A stretch of 44,612 bases of DNA from Escherichia phage vb_EcoS_bov22_1. The stretch's first letter is position 1. Every line of letters starts with the position of its first letter. The notes under the pieces are model-generated. The model was not told the DNA's origin. It ran no database searches and saw nothing but the letters and a program-made list of their open reading frames with translations. Location: sequence record NC_073084.1, one strand, 5' to 3'. Shown here piece after piece: positions 12,306-36,301 of the stretch. A program made the position numbers and the translations under genes.

Positions 12306-13088
12306 TTAACGGCGGCGACGTTTACGTGGCGCTTCGTCTTCGTCGTCGTCCTCATCTTCGTCATCGCGTGGCTTACGACGTTTGCGAGGTTTTTCATCTT
12401 CCTCATCGTCGTCGTCATCGCGGCGCTTGGATTTCTTGGACTTGCGCGGCTTGTCATCTTCATCATCGTCATCACGACGTTTTGACTTTTTGGACTTGCG
12501 CGGTGCTTCGTCTTCGTCGTCGTTGTCCAGGTCTTCGTCGGAACATGAAGACCCGCCACCTCCGAAGGCTTCGCCGTCTTCACGGAATCGCAGACCCAGC
12601 AAGCCAGCCCCGAGACCCTTGCCGTTGGTATTGTTCCACGCCCAGATATCAAGGGACACGTTGCAATAACAACCGGAGTAGATCTCCTGGCCGTCAATCT
12701 CGTCGCCGTCGATGGTCAGACCTTGTTCGGTCTGCTTCTCGCCGAGTGACGTTTGAATGATAGGCTGTTTGAACGATTTGGCGTTGATATACAACATGCC
12801 TTCGAATTCTTCGGTCACTTCGTCACGCTCGTCACCGTCGCGGACTGCGCATTCCTTAGAATCCTGGGCGTAGTGGCGGTCCATCCACTTATCGGCATTC
12901 TTCTCGGATTTCAGCTTGTCGGTGAGCACTGCGCGCGCTGCCGCTTCCACTTTGTCCACCTGCGGATCTTCTTTATCCAGAAGAATCACGGCACGGTATG
13001 CCGGTTTTTGTCCATCCTGTTTAGGGGTATCACGTTCCCAGATTTTCAGGAAGCATACGCGCACATTTTTCAGGTTGACTTTAGCCAT
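12306..13088 (-). CDS. single-strand DNA-binding protein (phage type) with long acidic/basic repeat tail
   Basis: ATG 13088 (MAKVNLKN) with GAGGAA RBS; OB-fold-like body ending in DGEAFGGG; C-terminal repeats DDDDEDDKPRKSKKSKRR; usual partner of the RecB-like nuclease and polymerase A in phage replication modules. Confidence 0.6.
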   Translation of the reverse strand: MAKVNLKNVRVCFLKIWERDTPKQDGQKPAYRAVILLDKEDPQVDKVEAAARAVLTDKLKSEKNADKWMDRHYAQDSKECAVRDGDERDEVTEEFEGMLYINAKSFKQPIIQTSLGEKQTEQGLTIDGDEIDGQEIYSGCYCNVSLDIWAWNNTNGKGLGAGLLGLRFREDGEAFGGGGSSCSDEDLDNDDEDEAPRKSKKSKRRDDDDEDDKPRKSKKSKRRDDDDDEEDEKPRKRRKPRDDEDEDDDEDEAPRKRRRR

Positions 13089-15332: not shown

Positions 15333-15851
15333 TTAATCTTCCAGTTCGAAATAGGTTTCGACGATTTCTTTTAACTCTGTGTGGAAGTCTTCGACGTCGT
15401 CATCTTCCAGCTTGGCGATTGATTTGATCTCGAACGATTCCAGCAGGTCGTCGAATTCGTCGTTCGCGTCGTCGTCATCACCCCCGGCAATAATAGCGGC
15501 ATACTGTTTGATCTCGTCGCGCATCTCTGCCAGCGGATCGGCATCTTTCTTACCTTTGCCTTTCGCCGGGGCTTTTTTACCCTTCGCAGGTTTTTCGTCT
15601 TCGGCTTCTTCATCGTCGTCATCTTCTACGACTTCTTTTTTGGACTTACCTTTCGCCGGGGCTTTTTTAGATTTAGCCGGTTTTTCGTCTTCGGCTTCAT
15701 CGTCGCCATCTTCGACAACTTCTTTTTTCGCCTTAGACGGCTTCTTGTCTTCCTGTTTACCAACGGCAGCGCCAACGGTTTCATAATGCTTTGCAATGGT
15801 TTCCAGTGCTACTACGCCGCGAGTGATCAGGTTTACGATTTGCTCAAACAT
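15333..15851 (-). CDS. highly acidic protein with Lys-rich tandem repeats; first gene of the leftward early operon (candidate host-takeover or DNA-mimic protein)
   Basis: ATG 15851 with GGAGATATACC RBS (upstream part of the track ORF has no RBS); two ~30-aa repeats KKEVVEDxDDEAEDEKPAKxKKAPAKGKxKK; acidic C-terminus. Confidence 0.65.
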   Translation of the reverse strand: MFEQIVNLITRGVVALETIAKHYETVGAAVGKQEDKKPSKAKKEVVEDGDDEAEDEKPAKSKKAPAKGKSKKEVVEDDDDEEAEDEKPAKGKKAPAKGKGKKDADPLAEMRDEIKQYAAIIAGGDDDDANDEFDDLLESFEIKSIAKLEDDDVEDFHTELKEIVETYFELED

Positions 15852-18933: not shown

Positions 18934-18954
18934 GAATAGTTATGCATTGAAACT

Positions 18955-19126
18955 GCATAAACTAAGCGGGACAAAAAGCGGGACAAACAAGGGGCGGGAC
19001 AAAGCGGGACAGCACCCCCGTCCCGCCCCGGATGACGCGGCTTCCAGAGGAGCGGGACAGCGGGACAGCACCCCAGTCTTTCAGACTAGACGGGGGTCAA
19101 CGGCCCCCCTCGTCTGAGACTGAATA
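18955..19126 (+). repeat. structured repeat element, copy A: GCGGGACA iterons plus GC-rich hairpins
   Basis: Six direct GCGGGACA-like copies and one inverted; 10-bp stem GGGGCGGGAC/GTCCCGCCCC; second hairpin AGACGGGGG ... CCCCCCTCGTCT; nearly identical to 36128-36301. Confidence 0.7.
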
Positions 19127-19282
19127 AAATCCGGGGATTGCAAAACACACGGCAGCATGATGCGAAGTGCGGTCGCGGATGAACTAGGCAACCAATGCTA
19201 GTAGCATTATGCTGAGTGAAAAATGCGGTTTGCAGTTGCAGCAGATAGCGATCAACTTTTTCATGCGCGTTATTAATATTGG

Positions 19283-31160: not shown

Positions 31161-31257
31161 GCGGATTGCCCGCGAAAGCGGGCAATTTTGCGAGCGCGTA
31201 AAACTAAGGTAACATTAATGCCACTGGGCGAATGCTCACAACTCAAAGGATTTCGAT

Positions 31258-32358
31258 ATGTCTTTAACAGTGTTCCAGCGTAAACTCGTTACCGCGGTTA
31301 CGCAAATGATCCCCGACAACCTGAACGTTTTCAACGCCGCCGCCAATGGCGCTGTTGTTCTCGGTACTGGTGAAGTGCTGAAGGACGTTATTGAGAAAAT
31401 GTCCGTAGGCTTGATCGCTAACCTCGTTACCGACCGTAACGCCTACGCCCCCGTCGGCACTCCGGCGACCGCGAAAGTGCTGGCGCGTATGCTAACCAAC
31501 TCGGTTAACCTTTCTGCAAAAGTGGGTCCGGTAGCAATCACTAAGGCTATGATGGCTAAGATCGAAACCAACGTTAACAGCGTTGCGGCTGAGATTGCGG
31601 CACAGGCTACTCAAGCGATTATGCTGCACTACCTGAAAGCTGGTATCGGCGCAAGTAAAGCGGCGATCGAAAGCAACGCAGCGGCAAAATACACCCAACC
31701 GGCGCGCGTTGACGGCGTTGGCGGTCGTACCTTCCCGACCCTGGCAGACTTCCCGCTGGCGGCTTCTAAGTTCGGCGATCAGGCGTCTTTGATTAAGTCT
31801 TGGTTTATGGACGGCGTTACCTGGGCAAACTTCATTGCGTACCAGGCACTCCCTTCCGCTGAACAGGTATTCGCAATTGGCGATCTCCAGGTAATGGGTG
31901 ATGGCCTGGGCCGTCGCTTCATTATCTCCGATGCCGCTGCCGATGCTATTGGCGCTGGTAACATGCTGGGTCTGGTCCCTGGCGCGGTTGCAGTTACGAC
32001 CAACGGCCTCGACATGCTGGCGCAGGAAAAAGGCGGCAACGAGAACATTGAGCGCTGGTGGCAGGGTGAGTTCGACTTCAACGTGGCTGTTAAAGGCTAC
32101 CGTCTGAAGGCGTCCGCTCGTACCCCGATCGAAGGTGTACGCTCGTTCAAACTGGACGATATCACCACTTCCGATAACTGGGAACTGGATCAGGGCCAGG
32201 TAGACAACGCACCGGCAACCGTGCAGGATGTTGGCGCTGTGGGCGATGGCGATACTAAAGGCCGTCGTAAGACCCAGGCCGCACAGGCAGTGCCTACCCG
32301 CCACATCAAGGAAACCGCTGGCGTACTGGTTACGCTGACTGCGACTACCGCGTCTTAA
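31258..32358 (+). CDS. major capsid protein
   Basis: 366 aa, AAAGGA RBS, followed by a strong terminator; position after the scaffold gene. Confidence 0.75.
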   Translation: MSLTVFQRKLVTAVTQMIPDNLNVFNAAANGAVVLGTGEVLKDVIEKMSVGLIANLVTDRNAYAPVGTPATAKVLARMLTNSVNLSAKVGPVAITKAMMAKIETNVNSVAAEIAAQATQAIMLHYLKAGIGASKAAIESNAAAKYTQPARVDGVGGRTFPTLADFPLAASKFGDQASLIKSWFMDGVTWANFIAYQALPSAEQVFAIGDLQVMGDGLGRRFIISDAAADAIGAGNMLGLVPGAVAVTTNGLDMLAQEKGGNENIERWWQGEFDFNVAVKGYRLKASARTPIEGVRSFKLDDITTSDNWELDQGQVDNAPATVQDVGAVGDGDTKGRRKTQAAQAVPTRHIKETAGVLVTLTATTAS

Positions 32359-32376
32359 CGGGCGCACATCCCAAAT

Positions 32377-32402
32377 GGGCGGGCTTATGCCCGCCTTTTT
32401 TA
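32377..32402 (+). terminator. rho-independent terminator
   Basis: gggcgggcttatgcccgcc followed by T6. Confidence 0.7.
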
Positions 32403-32416
32403 TAGGAGTGCATACA

Positions 32417-32917
32417 ATGTATGGCGACCCGCAAACCTTTGTTATTTATGCCGCTGCGCGAGGCGTTGAAATTACGCCGAGCGACGCAACGCGACACCTT
32501 ACTATCGTTAATGACTTCCTTAACGGCATAGACTGGATCGGCGAACAAGCAGACCCGACCGGAATTGACGCATGGCCCCGCGTCAACTACCCGTCAGACG
32601 GTAAGCCGGTGCGAAACACGCTTACTGAAGATTTGGCAGTAGTTCCCGCGGGGCAGATTGTAGACTTCGCATCAATCCCTGTCGCCGTTGAGCAAGCCGT
32701 TTACCGGCTGGCAATGTTGGTGGCTGACGAGGTCGATATTTCTCCTGTTGGCAGTGGTAAGGAGACTATCCGCGAGACTGTTGGCCCGATCACGATGGAA
32801 TATGACCCCGCGACGATTGGTAGCGGCGTCTCGTTCCCGTGGTGGGATGGCTTGCTGGGCCACTGGGTGAACGTAGACGGCAACGCAGCGGGTAATTTTG
32901 ACGTATTCCGGGGGTGA
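32417..32917 (+). CDS. head completion / head-tail connector protein (putative)
   Basis: 166 aa from ATG 32417 with TAGGAG RBS; call by position only. Confidence 0.45.
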   Translation: MYGDPQTFVIYAAARGVEITPSDATRHLTIVNDFLNGIDWIGEQADPTGIDAWPRVNYPSDGKPVRNTLTEDLAVVPAGQIVDFASIPVAVEQAVYRLAMLVADEVDISPVGSGKETIRETVGPITMEYDPATIGSGVSFPWWDGLLGHWVNVDGNAAGNFDVFRG

Positions 32918-32918
32918 T

Positions 32919-33089
32919 ATGAATCCTGCATTACTGGCGGCTATTATCGCCGCAAATACTAAGCACCAACCAGAACCAGAGCCGGAACCAGAACCAGAGC
33001 CGGAACCAGAGCCGGAACCAGAACCAGAGCCGGAACCAGAACCAGAGCCGGAGCCACCGGTACAGGAGGATGCTAATGGCGGGCTTTAA
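32919..33089 (+). CDS. small protein with (Pro-Glu)n dipeptide repeat
   Basis: ATG 32919 with GGGGGTGA RBS; MNPALLAAIIAANTKHQ followed by about 17 PE repeats; overlaps the next gene start. Confidence 0.45.
   Translation: MNPALLAAIIAANTKHQPEPEPEPEPEPEPEPEPEPEPEPEPEPEPPVQEDANGGL
32968..33056 (+). repeat. tandem hexanucleotide-type repeat (ccagaa/ccagag/ccggaa units) encoding the PE tract
   Basis: Direct reading: gaaccagagccggaaccagaaccagagccg repeated. Confidence 0.7.
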
Positions 33090-33429
33090 TTACGCAGGAT
33101 TAAAGCGGAAAGTGAATCCGCTGATTAAAAAATTCGGCATGACCGTTACGGTTACGCGTCCGGGATCGGTTGACCGCGTAGATGGCGAAGAAGTGGTCAT
33201 CCCGCCGACCTCGTTTGACGTCATCGGTCTTCGCGAGGAGTACAAGCCTAGCGAGATCGACGGAACGCGTATCGTTGCCGGTGATGTGAAGTTTTTATGT
33301 CGGGCGGTTGAGCAATTGCGGGTGGGCGACCTGGTTAACCTGAACGGCACTGACTACCGGGTCATCAACCCTAACCCACTGCAACCGGCGGGAACTACCA
33401 TGCTGTTTCAACTACAGCTAAGGGGCTAA
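33076..33429 (+). CDS. head-tail joining protein (putative)
   Basis: 118 aa; strong AGGAGG RBS; call by position. Confidence 0.5.
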   Translation: MAGFNYAGLKRKVNPLIKKFGMTVTVTRPGSVDRVDGEEVVIPPTSFDVIGLREEYKPSEIDGTRIVAGDVKFLCRAVEQLRVGDLVNLNGTDYRVINPNPLQPAGTTMLFQLQLRG

Positions 33430-33430
33430 C

Positions 33431-34024
33431 GTGGCTGAAGTCTACTCATTCGCCGCCACTATTGCTACGTGGGTGGATAAGACGAAGGAGAACAACGATA
33501 AGGCGGTGCGGGCGTACGGGATGCAAATACTCGGACGCCTTATTGAGATCTCCCCGGTGGGCGACCCTCGCCGGTGGAAAATTAACAGGGCTTACGCGCT
33601 GGCCCGCCAGCACGCGAACAAGGTGAACGCCGCGCAGCGCCGCAAGAATGGCGGCAAACTGAAGCGCGGGCAGAAGAAGCACGCCAGCGTGCTGGTATCA
33701 TTCAAAACTAAAAACGGCAACGTCACGTTCCGCCAGCGTGGCTGGGCTGCGAAGAATTACACCGGCGGACGCTTCCGGGGAAACTGGCAGGTTACGTTCG
33801 ACCGACCGGCGGTTGGCGCTATAGACCGCGTGGACAAGGCCGGAACGGCAACATTAGCCGCTGGGCGTGAAGTGCTGGCGCATTACGATTCCAGTGAATA
33901 CGGGTCGATCTGGTTTACTAACAACGTGCCATACGCGCAGCGACTTGAGTATGGCTGGAGTAAACAAGCGCCCGCGGGGATTGTTCGCGTCGTAGCGGCA
34001 GAAATTAATTCGAAGGTGAAATAA
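33431..34024 (+). CDS. neck / tail completion protein (putative)
   Basis: 197 aa; GTG start with AAGGGG RBS; call by position. Confidence 0.45.
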   Translation: MAEVYSFAATIATWVDKTKENNDKAVRAYGMQILGRLIEISPVGDPRRWKINRAYALARQHANKVNAAQRRKNGGKLKRGQKKHASVLVSFKTKNGNVTFRQRGWAAKNYTGGRFRGNWQVTFDRPAVGAIDRVDKAGTATLAAGREVLAHYDSSEYGSIWFTNNVPYAQRLEYGWSKQAPAGIVRVVAAEINSKVK

Positions 34025-34446
34025 TGAGCAATACCGCAATCCGCAAAGCGCTTAACAGCGTGGTTGAAGAGTTATCGGCAAGCCTGAGCACAAGCCAGCG
34101 TCCGATTAGGGTTAACTGGGAGAACGTGAGCGGCGACCACGCAAACGGCAGCGGTGTCTACCTGGAGCCGTACCTGCTACCGGCCCCGACCCAGTTTGTG
34201 GGCTTACAGCAGAAGGGTCGGATCTATGCTGGCGTATATCAGGTTGCCGTGGTGTTTCCCGCAGGAACTGGAACACAGTACGCGAGCGAACTGGCGGACG
34301 CCATCGCTACGTCTGATAAGTGGCTGGCGGTGAAGATTTCCGGTGCGTCATTTCAGCTTCAGGACGCGCCATACACCAGTTCAGTGATTGAAGACGTTGA
34401 TCGCGCCCGCATCGTGGTTACAGTACCCTACACCTGTTGCGCCTGA
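34024..34446 (+). CDS. tail terminator protein (putative)
   Basis: 140 aa; coupled to the upstream gene; immediately precedes the major tail gene. Confidence 0.45.
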   Translation: MSNTAIRKALNSVVEELSASLSTSQRPIRVNWENVSGDHANGSGVYLEPYLLPAPTQFVGLQQKGRIYAGVYQVAVVFPAGTGTQYASELADAIATSDKWLAVKISGASFQLQDAPYTSSVIEDVDRARIVVTVPYTCCA

Positions 34447-34507
34447 TTTGGCGCTATTCTGCGCGTGCTGTATCATTAAACCGTATATCTAAACAGGAGC
34501 GTTCATT

Positions 34508-35233
34508 ATGGGTTATCAACTTCCTAACGGGTCTAGCGTCCAGATTGGGTCCGTACTGGGTAGCGGCATCGCTGTTACGGCAGCCACCAACGCCGCCGCG
34601 TCTATCTCCGACCTTACGCAAGGTTGCGTAATTACCTGTGCGTCTTCGCATGGTCTGGTTGTTGGCGACGTTGTTATGTTCACTAAAACCCCGTGGGTCC
34701 GAGCGCTTAACCGCGCATTCATCGTGGGTAAAGTGGACACCAACGACGTTACGCTGGCGCGCTTCGACACCGAAGACGTTACCAAGTATCCTACCGGAGC
34801 GTTTGGTGTAGGCACTCCGGGCGAAGTGGTGAAAGTGTCGAGCTTTATCGACTTCCCGTTTATCACTAACGTTGCCGTGTCGGGTGGTGACCAGCAGACT
34901 ACTACCTTCCAGCCGTTGCAGGTGAACACCGCAATCAGTCTTAACACCACGAAAAACCCGTTGGTACAGACTTACACCTTCACCCACGACGAAGAAGACC
35001 CGATCCGCCCAATCCTGGAAGACCTGGACGACACACAGAAAACCACTGTGATTAAGTTTACGAACCCAGCGGCAGCAAGCGGCAAAGGTGAAATTCGTAT
35101 TTACCCGGCTAAGGTATCTTTCCAGAAGATTCCGTCCGCTGAAGTAAACAACGTGGAAACGGTACAATCCACTCTGACCATGCAGTCAGATATGGTTATC
35201 TACCGCAAGGATCTGGTCGAGGCATTGTCTTGA
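34508..35233 (+). CDS. major tail protein
   Basis: 241 aa, AGGAG RBS, followed by a terminator and the G/G-T chaperone and tape-measure genes. Confidence 0.7.
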   Translation: MGYQLPNGSSVQIGSVLGSGIAVTAATNAAASISDLTQGCVITCASSHGLVVGDVVMFTKTPWVRALNRAFIVGKVDTNDVTLARFDTEDVTKYPTGAFGVGTPGEVVKVSSFIDFPFITNVAVSGGDQQTTTFQPLQVNTAISLNTTKNPLVQTYTFTHDEEDPIRPILEDLDDTQKTTVIKFTNPAAASGKGEIRIYPAKVSFQKIPSAEVNNVETVQSTLTMQSDMVIYRKDLVEALS

Positions 35234-35979: not shown

Positions 35980-35982
35980 TGA

Positions 35983-36120
35983 AGCGGGACAAAACGGGAT
36001 GTCCCGTTTTGTCCCACCCCACAAATGTGCATATCTAATCACTTCCATTGCATAATCTAAAAGCGGGACAATCGGGACGTCCCGTTTTGTCCCACCCCAC
36101 AAATGTGCATACCTATTCGG
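35983..36120 (+). repeat. two tandem ~79-bp units, each with a 30-bp GGGAC-based palindrome next to a promoter-like TTGTCC-17 nt-TATCTA/TACCTA
   Basis: Perfect inverted repeat gggacaaaacggga-tg-tcccgttttgtccc at 35986-36015; degenerate copy 36065-36093; each followed by accccacaaatgtgcata. Confidence 0.6.
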
Positions 36121-36127
36121 ATTTCGT

Positions 36128-36301
36128 GCATAAACTAAGCGGGACAAAAAGCGGGACAAACAAGGTGCGGGACAAAGCGGGACAGCACCCCCGTCCCAGC
36201 CAGTGCTGCCGCGGTTTTTAGCCGATCGGGACAGGCGGGACAAACCCCAGTCTTTCAGACTAGACGGGGGTCAATGGCCCCCCTCGTCTGAGACTGCATA
36301 A
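36128..36301 (+). repeat. structured repeat element, copy B (GCGGGACA iterons plus hairpins)
   Basis: About 70 nt then about 60 nt near-identical to 18955-19126, with a divergent central segment; in the second hairpin the single C/T difference falls in the loop. Confidence 0.7.

Follow-up and report, generated by a model that had tools for sequence, protein, structure and literature searches.

The phage protein family catalogued as PHROG 11158 / VOG10345, to which HK578_010, SSL-2009a gp12 and SECphi18 gp28 belong, is uncharacterised, and our literature search found no paper that mentions it. Its typical members have 34-44 aa and combine an N-terminal helix with a P/E-rich tail of about five degenerate units. 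Alternating proline and glutamate is also found in the (Glu-Pro)n-(Lys-Pro)n spacer of TonB, whose Pro-Glu tract follows a hydrophobic N-terminus and is probably an extended, PPII-like rod, and as (EP)n in the procyclin (PARP) of Trypanosoma. In-frame VNTRs in surface proteins differ in copy number between near-identical genomes while the frame is kept, and other VNTRs act as on/off switches. A further comparison is with pb10 of phage T5 and Hoc of T4 and RB49, decoration proteins in which a folded capsid-binding domain serves as anchor for a linker and surface Ig domains; Hoc is acidic overall, and its surface Ig-like domains have been described as adhesive (PMC10385173).

Here we analyse a member of this family encoded by Escherichia phage vb_EcoS_bov22_1 (NC_073084.1), of which a stretch of 44,612 nucleotides, hereafter the window, was studied. 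Its gene and product, which we call the micro-gene and the micro-protein, have the slot, the N-terminal helix and the P/E-rich tail of the family, but with 56 aa and 14 near-perfect units. With TonB the micro-protein shares an uninterrupted run of alternating Pro and Glu after an N-terminal hydrophobic segment. It lacks, however, the (KP)n half, the C-terminal domain and the membrane-spanning segment of TonB, and is the product of a cytoplasmic late gene of a phage; a Pfam search of the micro-protein returned no TonB domain at E <= 1, and the resemblance is compositional only. Procyclin shares the (EP)n composition, but its signal peptide and GPI features have no counterpart here; the match to PF05887 reaches 27.3 bits over the EP repeat only, against a gathering threshold of 100, and was rejected as compositional rather than homologous. 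As in the VNTRs of surface proteins, copy number differs between near-identical genomes with the frame kept, whereas on/off switches differ from the micro-gene, whose units measure 6, 18, 27 and 30 nt. Two homologues, those of phage SM_A2 and of a metagenome contig (P0037), share with pb10 and Hoc a homologous Ig domain joined to a conserved non-Ig segment, and the micro-protein is acidic like Hoc. Unlike these decoration proteins it has a 12-residue helix as putative anchor in place of a folded capsid-binding domain, no Ig-like domain in the window allele, and a gene placed in the neck block rather than beside the capsid gene; its location on the virion, too, is putative. In kind, the micro-protein resembles decoration proteins made of an anchor, a linker and Ig domains, and also surface proteins with in-frame VNTRs.

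Results

The micro-gene and its neighbours

The window comes from a Dhillonvirus coliphage. Its region 31200-35200 is 100% identical to vb_EcoS_bov16_1 and bov15_1, Escherichia phages of the genus Dhillonvirus from cattle faeces in Hungary, and essentially identical to bov11C2; 157 phage records matched this region. The features of the locus are collected in Table 1. Between an ATG at 32919 and a TAA at 33087-33089, the micro-gene encodes MNPALLAAIIAANTKHQ-(PE)14-PPVQEDANGGL, a product of 56 aa, among them 17 Pro and 15 Glu, whose net charge is -15. A sequence-only reading of this DNA had described an ORF of 56 codons at 32919-33089, with a good RBS, a short hydrophobic N-terminus and about 17 PE units, sitting among head-tail joining genes. 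The ORF and its translation agree with these coordinates and with the nature of the N-terminus, an SD-like GGGGG run is found 4 nt before the ATG, and the neighbours are indeed Ad1 upstream and Hc1, Neck1 and the tail terminator downstream; the PE units, on the other hand, number 14, the sole numerical error of that reading.

Table 1. Features of the micro-gene locus, in positions of the window.
Feature	Position	Strand	Evidence and remarks
Major capsid protein	31258-32358		PHROG/Pfam profiles
Head-tail adaptor Ad1	32417..32917	+	166 aa as annotated in relatives; phrog_477 E = 3e-36; Pfam DnaT_2
GGGGG SD-like run and Ad1 stop TGA	32910..32917	+	1 nt before micro-gene ATG
Micro-gene	32919..33089	+	56 codons and stop; ORF/translation, PHROG 11158, synteny
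Conserved hydrophobic helix, codons 1-15 (MNPALLAAIIAANTK), proposed anchor	32919..32963	+	pN/pS 0.09; AF2; invariant Ala
(PE)14 tract	32970..33053	+	14 hexamers in a higher-order 18/30-nt repeat
Perfect 30-nt period	32973..33040	+	Tandem Repeats Finder: 2.3 copies, 100% matches, score 136
Micro-gene 3' end with Hc1 RBS	33064..33089	+	AGGAGG 33064-33069; 14-nt overlap with Hc1 ATG 33076
Head closure Hc1	33076..33429	+	117 aa; phrog_161 E = 1e-31; weak Pfam Phage_attach match
Neck1/tail completion	33431-34024		PHROG/Pfam profiles
Tail terminator	34024-34446		PHROG/Pfam profiles; major tail protein next

The micro-gene is closely tied to both of its neighbours. Its start context consists of GGGGG (32910-32914), the TGA that ends Ad1 (32915-32917), a single T and the ATG, and its last 14 nt overlap Hc1. 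This overlap is kept in 18 of the 22 unique alleles; Teewinot and SM_A2, among the four outside this count, have no overlap with Hc1 and are also devoid of the ...GGL ending, and the Hc1 start of Zar3M was not located by the search pattern. No promoter-like or terminator-like site was found within or beside 32919-33089. The 1-nt gap to Ad1, the overlap with Hc1 and the lack of a promoter and a terminator of its own indicate that the micro-gene belongs to a translationally coupled neck operon and is not a moron, that is, an autonomous accessory gene with its own promoter and terminator, a candidate that we rejected.

Other observations concern the surroundings of the gene. A strong intrinsic-terminator-like hairpin (GGGCGGGC-TTAT-GCCCGCC, then T6; 32377-32396) lies 19 nt past the stop of the major capsid gene and probably attenuates transcription into the neck genes; it is overlapped by the longer ORF from 32375 and suggests that Ad1 starts instead at 32417 (166 aa). 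In phage bob (NC_073072.1, locus L021) the record annotates a repeat_region at 213-251, in the C-terminal part of Ad1, and the distance from Ad1 to the micro-gene exceeds that of the window by 18 nt, so that Ad1 too has in-frame length polymorphism. Rfam and tRNA scans of the window found nothing.

The annotation of the micro-gene varies among public records. It is missing from that of bov16_1 (MT884013), and those of Teewinot (OK499993) and SM_A2 (PP920552) have a reverse-strand CDS over the repeat in its place. In ZCEC10 (OK310514) it is absorbed in an Hc1 call begun too far upstream, at a non-canonical CTG start, and in Ioannina (OQ589852) it is also absorbed in the Hc1 call, in a sequence with two probable homopolymer errors.

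Coding evidence and family membership

The micro-protein matches PHROG 11158, a 38-position profile listed as of unknown function, with E = 2e-21 and 77 bits. The match comes in two stretches, corresponding to the N- and C-terminal parts and split by the expanded repeat, and a 38-aa relative matches positions 1-38 of 38 (E = 4e-27). A homologue lies between Ad1 and Hc1 in 26 of 26 examined Dhillonvirus loci as well as in the metagenome locus. Selection was assessed over codons 1-15, chosen because no other gene overlaps there. Variable sites at codon positions 1, 2 and 3 number 3, 2 and 11, and the pooled pairwise pN/pS among 13 distinct main-clade sequences is 0.09, a signal that we consider strong, in pairs that are not phylogenetically independent.

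Length changes tell the same story. From the ranking of the 157 records we took 60, evenly spaced, which gave 57 full-length matches, and all 57 spans differ from that of the window by multiples of 3, odd multiples included (741, 744, 747, 750, 753, 756, 762, 768, 771, 801, 867 and 1200 bp). Two divergent records are off by 50 and 48 nt because their spacer between Ad1 and the micro-gene is 2 nt and not 1; Ioannina has two extra single bases as well. The architecture persists in diverged clades, where one hydrophobic residue is conservatively replaced by another. The low pN/pS, the frame-preserving spans and the ORF kept throughout argue that the micro-gene is a genuine translated gene, with purifying selection acting on its helix codons. 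By the sequence-only reading, a lack of detectable translation together with a repeat absent or non-coding in relatives would have counted against it; what we find in relatives is a conserved plus-strand ORF that changes length in frame.

The Pro-Glu repeat and its length variation

The PE tract is written with the synonymous hexamers CCAGAA (a), CCAGAG (b) and CCGGAA (c), in the order abc abc bc abc ab followed by CCGGAG, which makes it a higher-order 18/30-nt repeat and not a pure run of hexamers. Tandem Repeats Finder reports an array at 32968-33056 (period 18, score 129), where near-perfect tandem hexanucleotides had been noted from the sequence alone: the array stands, and its organisation is the higher-order one just described. 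The 30-nt period at 32973-33040 is the unit by whose gain or loss sister isolates differ. No comparable array was found by this program elsewhere in the 44.6-kb window.

Repeats of other types were observed at some distance. Two dispersed copies of about 175 nt, some 90% identical, lie in different intergenic regions (18954-19127 and 36127-36301). They are built of AAGCGGGACAAA 12-mers and a 78-nt period with a GGGACGTCCC palindrome and could be regulatory or iteron-like; Tandem Repeats Finder also reports arrays at 18964-19011, 19051-19069 and 35982-36160. Tandem repeats in minus-strand coding sequence at 12398-12523 and 15559-15735, with periods of 54 and 90 nt and 73-85% matches, look like acidic/basic low-complexity segments in early-region genes.

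In most relatives the micro-protein has 34-44 aa and about five degenerate PE/PA/PV units, as in QPEPEPAPEPEPPVQ. The window differs from bov25_1D by 6 substitutions and one indel over the whole 44.6-kb genome, and this sole indel consists of 30 nt of the PE tract, with 14 units in the former and 9 in the latter. Longer tracts are also found in Teewinot, in which a 27-nt unit (PEPEPPVPA) is present about five times in a protein of 72 aa, and in SM_A2, with pure CCAGAG repeated 16 times; ZCEC10, Kenya-K19, Zar3M, P0005 and P0032 show small tract gains, to 41-43 aa. The expansions of Teewinot and SM_A2, built of different units, are independent. On this comparison the (PE)14 of the window is best taken as a recent in-frame expansion of a tail of about five units. 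Copy number was thus rightly expected, in the sequence-only reading, to vary between isolates, and the comparison of repeat length across related genomes that it called for shows that lengths do differ. We considered, and rejected, an on/off contingency locus: units of 6, 18 and 30 nt in the window, 27 in Teewinot and 6 in SM_A2 are all multiples of 3, so that copy changes keep the frame and produce variation in length, not a switch. As far as our searches show, the expanded PE allele, its status as sole indel and the independent expansions are new.

Architecture of the micro-protein

AF2, run with a 25-sequence alignment, predicts a helix at residues 3-14, past which the chain has no secondary structure; mean pLDDT is 89 for residues 1-10 and 78 overall, and pTM is 0.24. 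The N-termini of three diverged clades (MNPALLAAIIAANTK, MNPAIIVAMLAALATK and MNPAVIAALLAALATK) have A4, A8, A11 and A12 invariant and conservative bulky hydrophobic replacements at positions 5, 6, 9 and 10. These two sets form an Ala face and a bulky hydrophobic face in a helix that is almost devoid of a polar face and has a low hydrophobic moment, from which we infer that it is fully buried, either against another protein or in an oligomer. The uncharged hydrophobic run spans 10-12 residues in all three clades, with K/R after it and no basic n-region ahead of it. A membrane-spanning or secreted protein was therefore rejected: the run is too short to cross a membrane, for which some 15-20 residues or more are needed, and an n-region of signal-peptide type is missing. 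A search of solved structures with the family profile returned nothing relevant, the best match having E = 0.63.

Taken as extended PPII, and from general PPII geometry, the 28 PE residues of the window would measure roughly 8-9 nm, against about 3 nm in typical alleles. At the C-terminus, the near-invariant ...DGGL is what the Hc1 start (ATGGCGGGCTTTAA; ATG GCG GGC TTT...) encodes in the other frame. It is gone in Teewinot (...PPVQEG) and SM_A2 (...KGE), the genes of which do not overlap Hc1, and we rejected it as a functional motif, its conservation being due to the 14-nt overlap.

Ig-bearing homologues

The homologue of SM_A2 has 147 aa, in which the same helix is followed by an insert of about 95 residues and then by (PE)16. 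P0037, of 122 aa, comes from an independent metagenome contig (Logan SRR10023924, locus L032), where its gene is flanked by those of a DnaT_2/Ad1 protein (166 aa) and of Hc1 (117 aa), overlaps the latter by the usual 14 nt and encodes the canonical ending ...EDENGGL. The two inserts are 67% identical, and pN = 0.22 versus a saturated pS = 0.75 implies that they are maintained by purifying selection. P0037 passes the gathering score of Pfam Ig_3 (33.2 vs 30) and matches solved virion proteins, among them the decoration proteins 8ZVI (E = 1e-14) and 5LXK (E = 6e-13), the tail protein 9C2D and the Hoc structure 3SHS. In tblastn, the SM_A2 insert shares about 40% identity with the Ig domains found at the C-terminus of HK97-type major tail proteins and of T5-like Hoc-like decoration proteins. 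All phage proteins matched by the Ig inserts are surface-exposed virion components, and phage Ig-like domains are reportedly found essentially only on virion structural proteins. A family that hosts an Ig domain kept under selection is then most simply a family of virion-surface proteins. The Ig-bearing forms are rare (one phage record among those searched and one metagenome contig) and, as far as our searches show, previously undescribed.

In both homologues the PE tract is C-terminal to the Ig domain. This position is that of a tail and not of a spacer between anchor and cargo. The sequence-only reading had pointed to (EP)n tracts as rigid spacers, as in TonB; that picture is not established for the micro-protein, whose tract is Pro/Glu-rich and shown by AF2 without secondary structure, but which lacks TonB features.

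The SM_A2 record (PP920552.1, locus L020) also has, at 765-875, a 111-nt tandem duplication in frame with Hc1, of which it includes the first 9 codons, together with the RBS and eleven CCAGAG hexamers. From the first ATG, Hc1 would acquire a 37-aa N-terminal extension, MAGFNYAGL(SQ)nSRRGSN-. The duplication is either a real duplication of the junction or an assembly artefact.

Lineage restriction and origin of the gene

A word-indexed search of 5.8 billion proteins gave 36 clusters, all of 34-44 aa; the contigs listed with a length measure about 46 kb at most, and the sources that are named are all Dhillonvirus-type phages. HMMER, run exhaustively over 1.84 billion representatives, gave two short clusters and the Ig-bearing P0037. 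P0039-P0041, from the same scan, were set aside as unrelated proteins with repeated PE-rich modules. One of them, P0039 (456 aa, from a metagenome), has five repeats ...IEKLLAANTVSAPEPEPAPEPV... that are locally like the helix-to-tail junction AANTKRQPEPEPAPEPEPPV of the micro-protein, a likeness that is probably due to convergence of 'helix + PE linker' modules. A search of the 819 six-frame ORFs of the window with an HMM of the helix gave no second copy.

Judged by Hc1, with 33-38% identity, the closest phages outside the genus are Aeromonas pAEv1818, Stenotrophomonas AXL_1, Xanthomonas Xp12 and Klebsiella KLB22. None of the four has an intervening ORF, and Ad1 and Hc1 are 1-2 nt apart. The start context of the outgroup Hc1, made of GGGG, a stop, 1-2 nt and the start codon, is the same as that of the micro-gene in the window, and the junction of pAEv1818, ...NFDV.RG-stop-N-ATG, is the context that now precedes the micro-gene. 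The shared junction implies that the micro-gene occupies the start context used by the outgroup Hc1, and that the RBS of Hc1 now lies inside the micro-gene. Judged by these comparisons, the micro-gene is a Dhillonvirus-specific accessory gene inserted into a directly coupled Ad1/Hc1 junction, an event that, as far as our searches show, had not been described before.

Discussion

We tentatively favour the reading that the micro-protein is a non-essential accessory of the virion, probably at the neck, with a buried anchor helix of 12 residues and an exposed acidic tail that tolerates changes in length. The virion location is suggested by the hosting of Ig domains, and it is because of the coupling to Ad1 and Hc1 that we propose the neck. 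The micro-protein would be co-produced with Ad1 and Hc1 through translational coupling, and its Ala-faced hydrophobic helix (residues 3-14) would bury itself as an anchor in a partner of the head-tail connector or in the capsid. The acidic Pro/Glu-rich tail, unstructured or PPII-like, would be only weakly constrained in length and nearly free to drift; that of the window could have grown by duplication of 18/30-nt units, via replication slippage or unequal recombination. Together with the Ig domain, where there is one, the tail would be exposed on the virion surface as a dispensable decoration or adhesion module. A bolder proposal, which we regard as possible but with less confidence, is that the helix is a minimal portable anchor in the Ad1/Hc1 (or portal) ring and works as a natural display scaffold, in most phages for a short acidic tail alone, in some for a tail grown several-fold, and in at least two lineages for an Ig adhesion domain of pb10/Hoc type, in which case a newly born gene would be functionalising the neck.

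Published data on Dhillonvirus virions are few. We found a single virion proteome, that of EE09 (PMC10673088, Table 1), and the homologue CDS26 (35 aa) is not among its 24 proteins. The sensitivity of this proteome is low, several tail proteins and Ad1 itself having been seen by a single peptide, and for this reason we treat the absence as a weak negative. Our literature search found no cryo-EM of a Dhillonvirus neck or capsid. The proteome paper on SH6, a T1-like phage, is not relevant here, and Ksap1, sensed by KpAvs2 (PMC11564622), is a different Dhillonvirus gene (74 aa, between methyltransferase and phosphatase genes).

The position and the coupling between Ad1 and Hc1 would also suit a cytoplasmic morphogenesis factor, the helix of which would bind Ad1 or Hc1 transiently while the acidic tail solubilises the complex or times head completion, the protein being released before or during tail attachment. 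A homologue missing from the EE09 list would fit such a factor, and so would the disordered acidic tail, since tails of this kind occur in some assembly chaperones. We nevertheless find this explanation unlikely, because in the closest outgroups the same Ad1/Hc1 pair comes together with no micro-protein present, because a maintained Ig domain of virion-decoration type is hard to explain in an intracellular chaperone, and because a tail able to triple in length speaks against a precise fit. The purifying selection on the Ig insert, the direct coupling of Ad1 and Hc1 in outgroups and the pN/pS of 0.09 on helix codons free of overlapping genes also make it highly improbable that the micro-gene is a mere translational-coupling spacer, setting the Hc1:Ad1 ratio with a peptide devoid of function, despite the stop/start arrangement on both sides, the RBS of Hc1 in the 3' end of the ORF and the poor constraint on the sequence and length of the tail. 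Small hydrophobic morons occur in siphophage structural modules, HK97 gp15 for example, and a hydrophobic N-terminus followed by K/R could be the anchor or signal of a moron-like peptide, membrane-associated or exported and directed at the host, with an effect on superinfection exclusion, lysis or entry. This we hold to be improbable: the hydrophobic run has just 10-12 residues, the basic residues come after it and not before, and the gene, which lacks its own promoter and terminator, is translationally coupled to late structural genes on both sides.

The frames of the three genes raise another question. Ad1, the micro-gene and Hc1 follow one another in three different frames, the micro-gene of the window contains no stop in the Hc1 frame, and the Ioannina record has an in-frame fusion of the micro-gene and Hc1; helix and tail could then normally be made as extra sequence on Ad1 or Hc1, through programmed frameshifting or slippage in the repeat. 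The Ioannina fusion, however, goes back to two homopolymers that are each one base longer than in the sister genome LM40P1, where the ORF is separate and has 39 aa. It is probably a sequencing error; the ORFs remain separate in sister genomes, and we rejected the fusion as a Rosetta-stone clue. A conserved frameshift fusion to Ad1 was rejected too, the spacer between Ad1 and the micro-gene being either 1 or 2 nt long, depending on the clade. Besides, two relatives (loci L010 and L018) carry Hc1-frame stops inside the helix codons and no canonical slippery site is present, so that we find delivery by frameshifting barely credible. As for the notion that there is no gene here, but a non-coding repeat or a real gene on the reverse strand, to which the unannotated region of bov16_1 and the minus-strand calls of Teewinot and SM_A2 could lend colour, we give it practically no credence. 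The minus-strand ORF (32 aa in the window) is confined to alleles with an expanded repeat, because an expanded repeat is open in all frames, and it is absent from 38-aa alleles, whereas the plus-strand ORF is conserved, preserves its frame and is under purifying selection.

Whatever its function, the micro-gene has some immediate uses. Its true frame fixes an annotation error that recurs across more than 150 genomes and, being the only indel between near-identical isolates, the PE tract is a ready VNTR marker to tell apart and track Dhillonvirus strains in passaging or therapy production. If the helix does anchor the protein to the virion, a segment of 15 residues that accommodates an Ig insert of 95 residues and a tail varying three-fold in length would be attractive as a minimal display tag, suited to the engineering of a well-behaved coliphage genus (BASEL Bas14-18, SECphi18). 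For the biology of these phages, the micro-gene offers a clean example of gene birth inside a translationally coupled junction.
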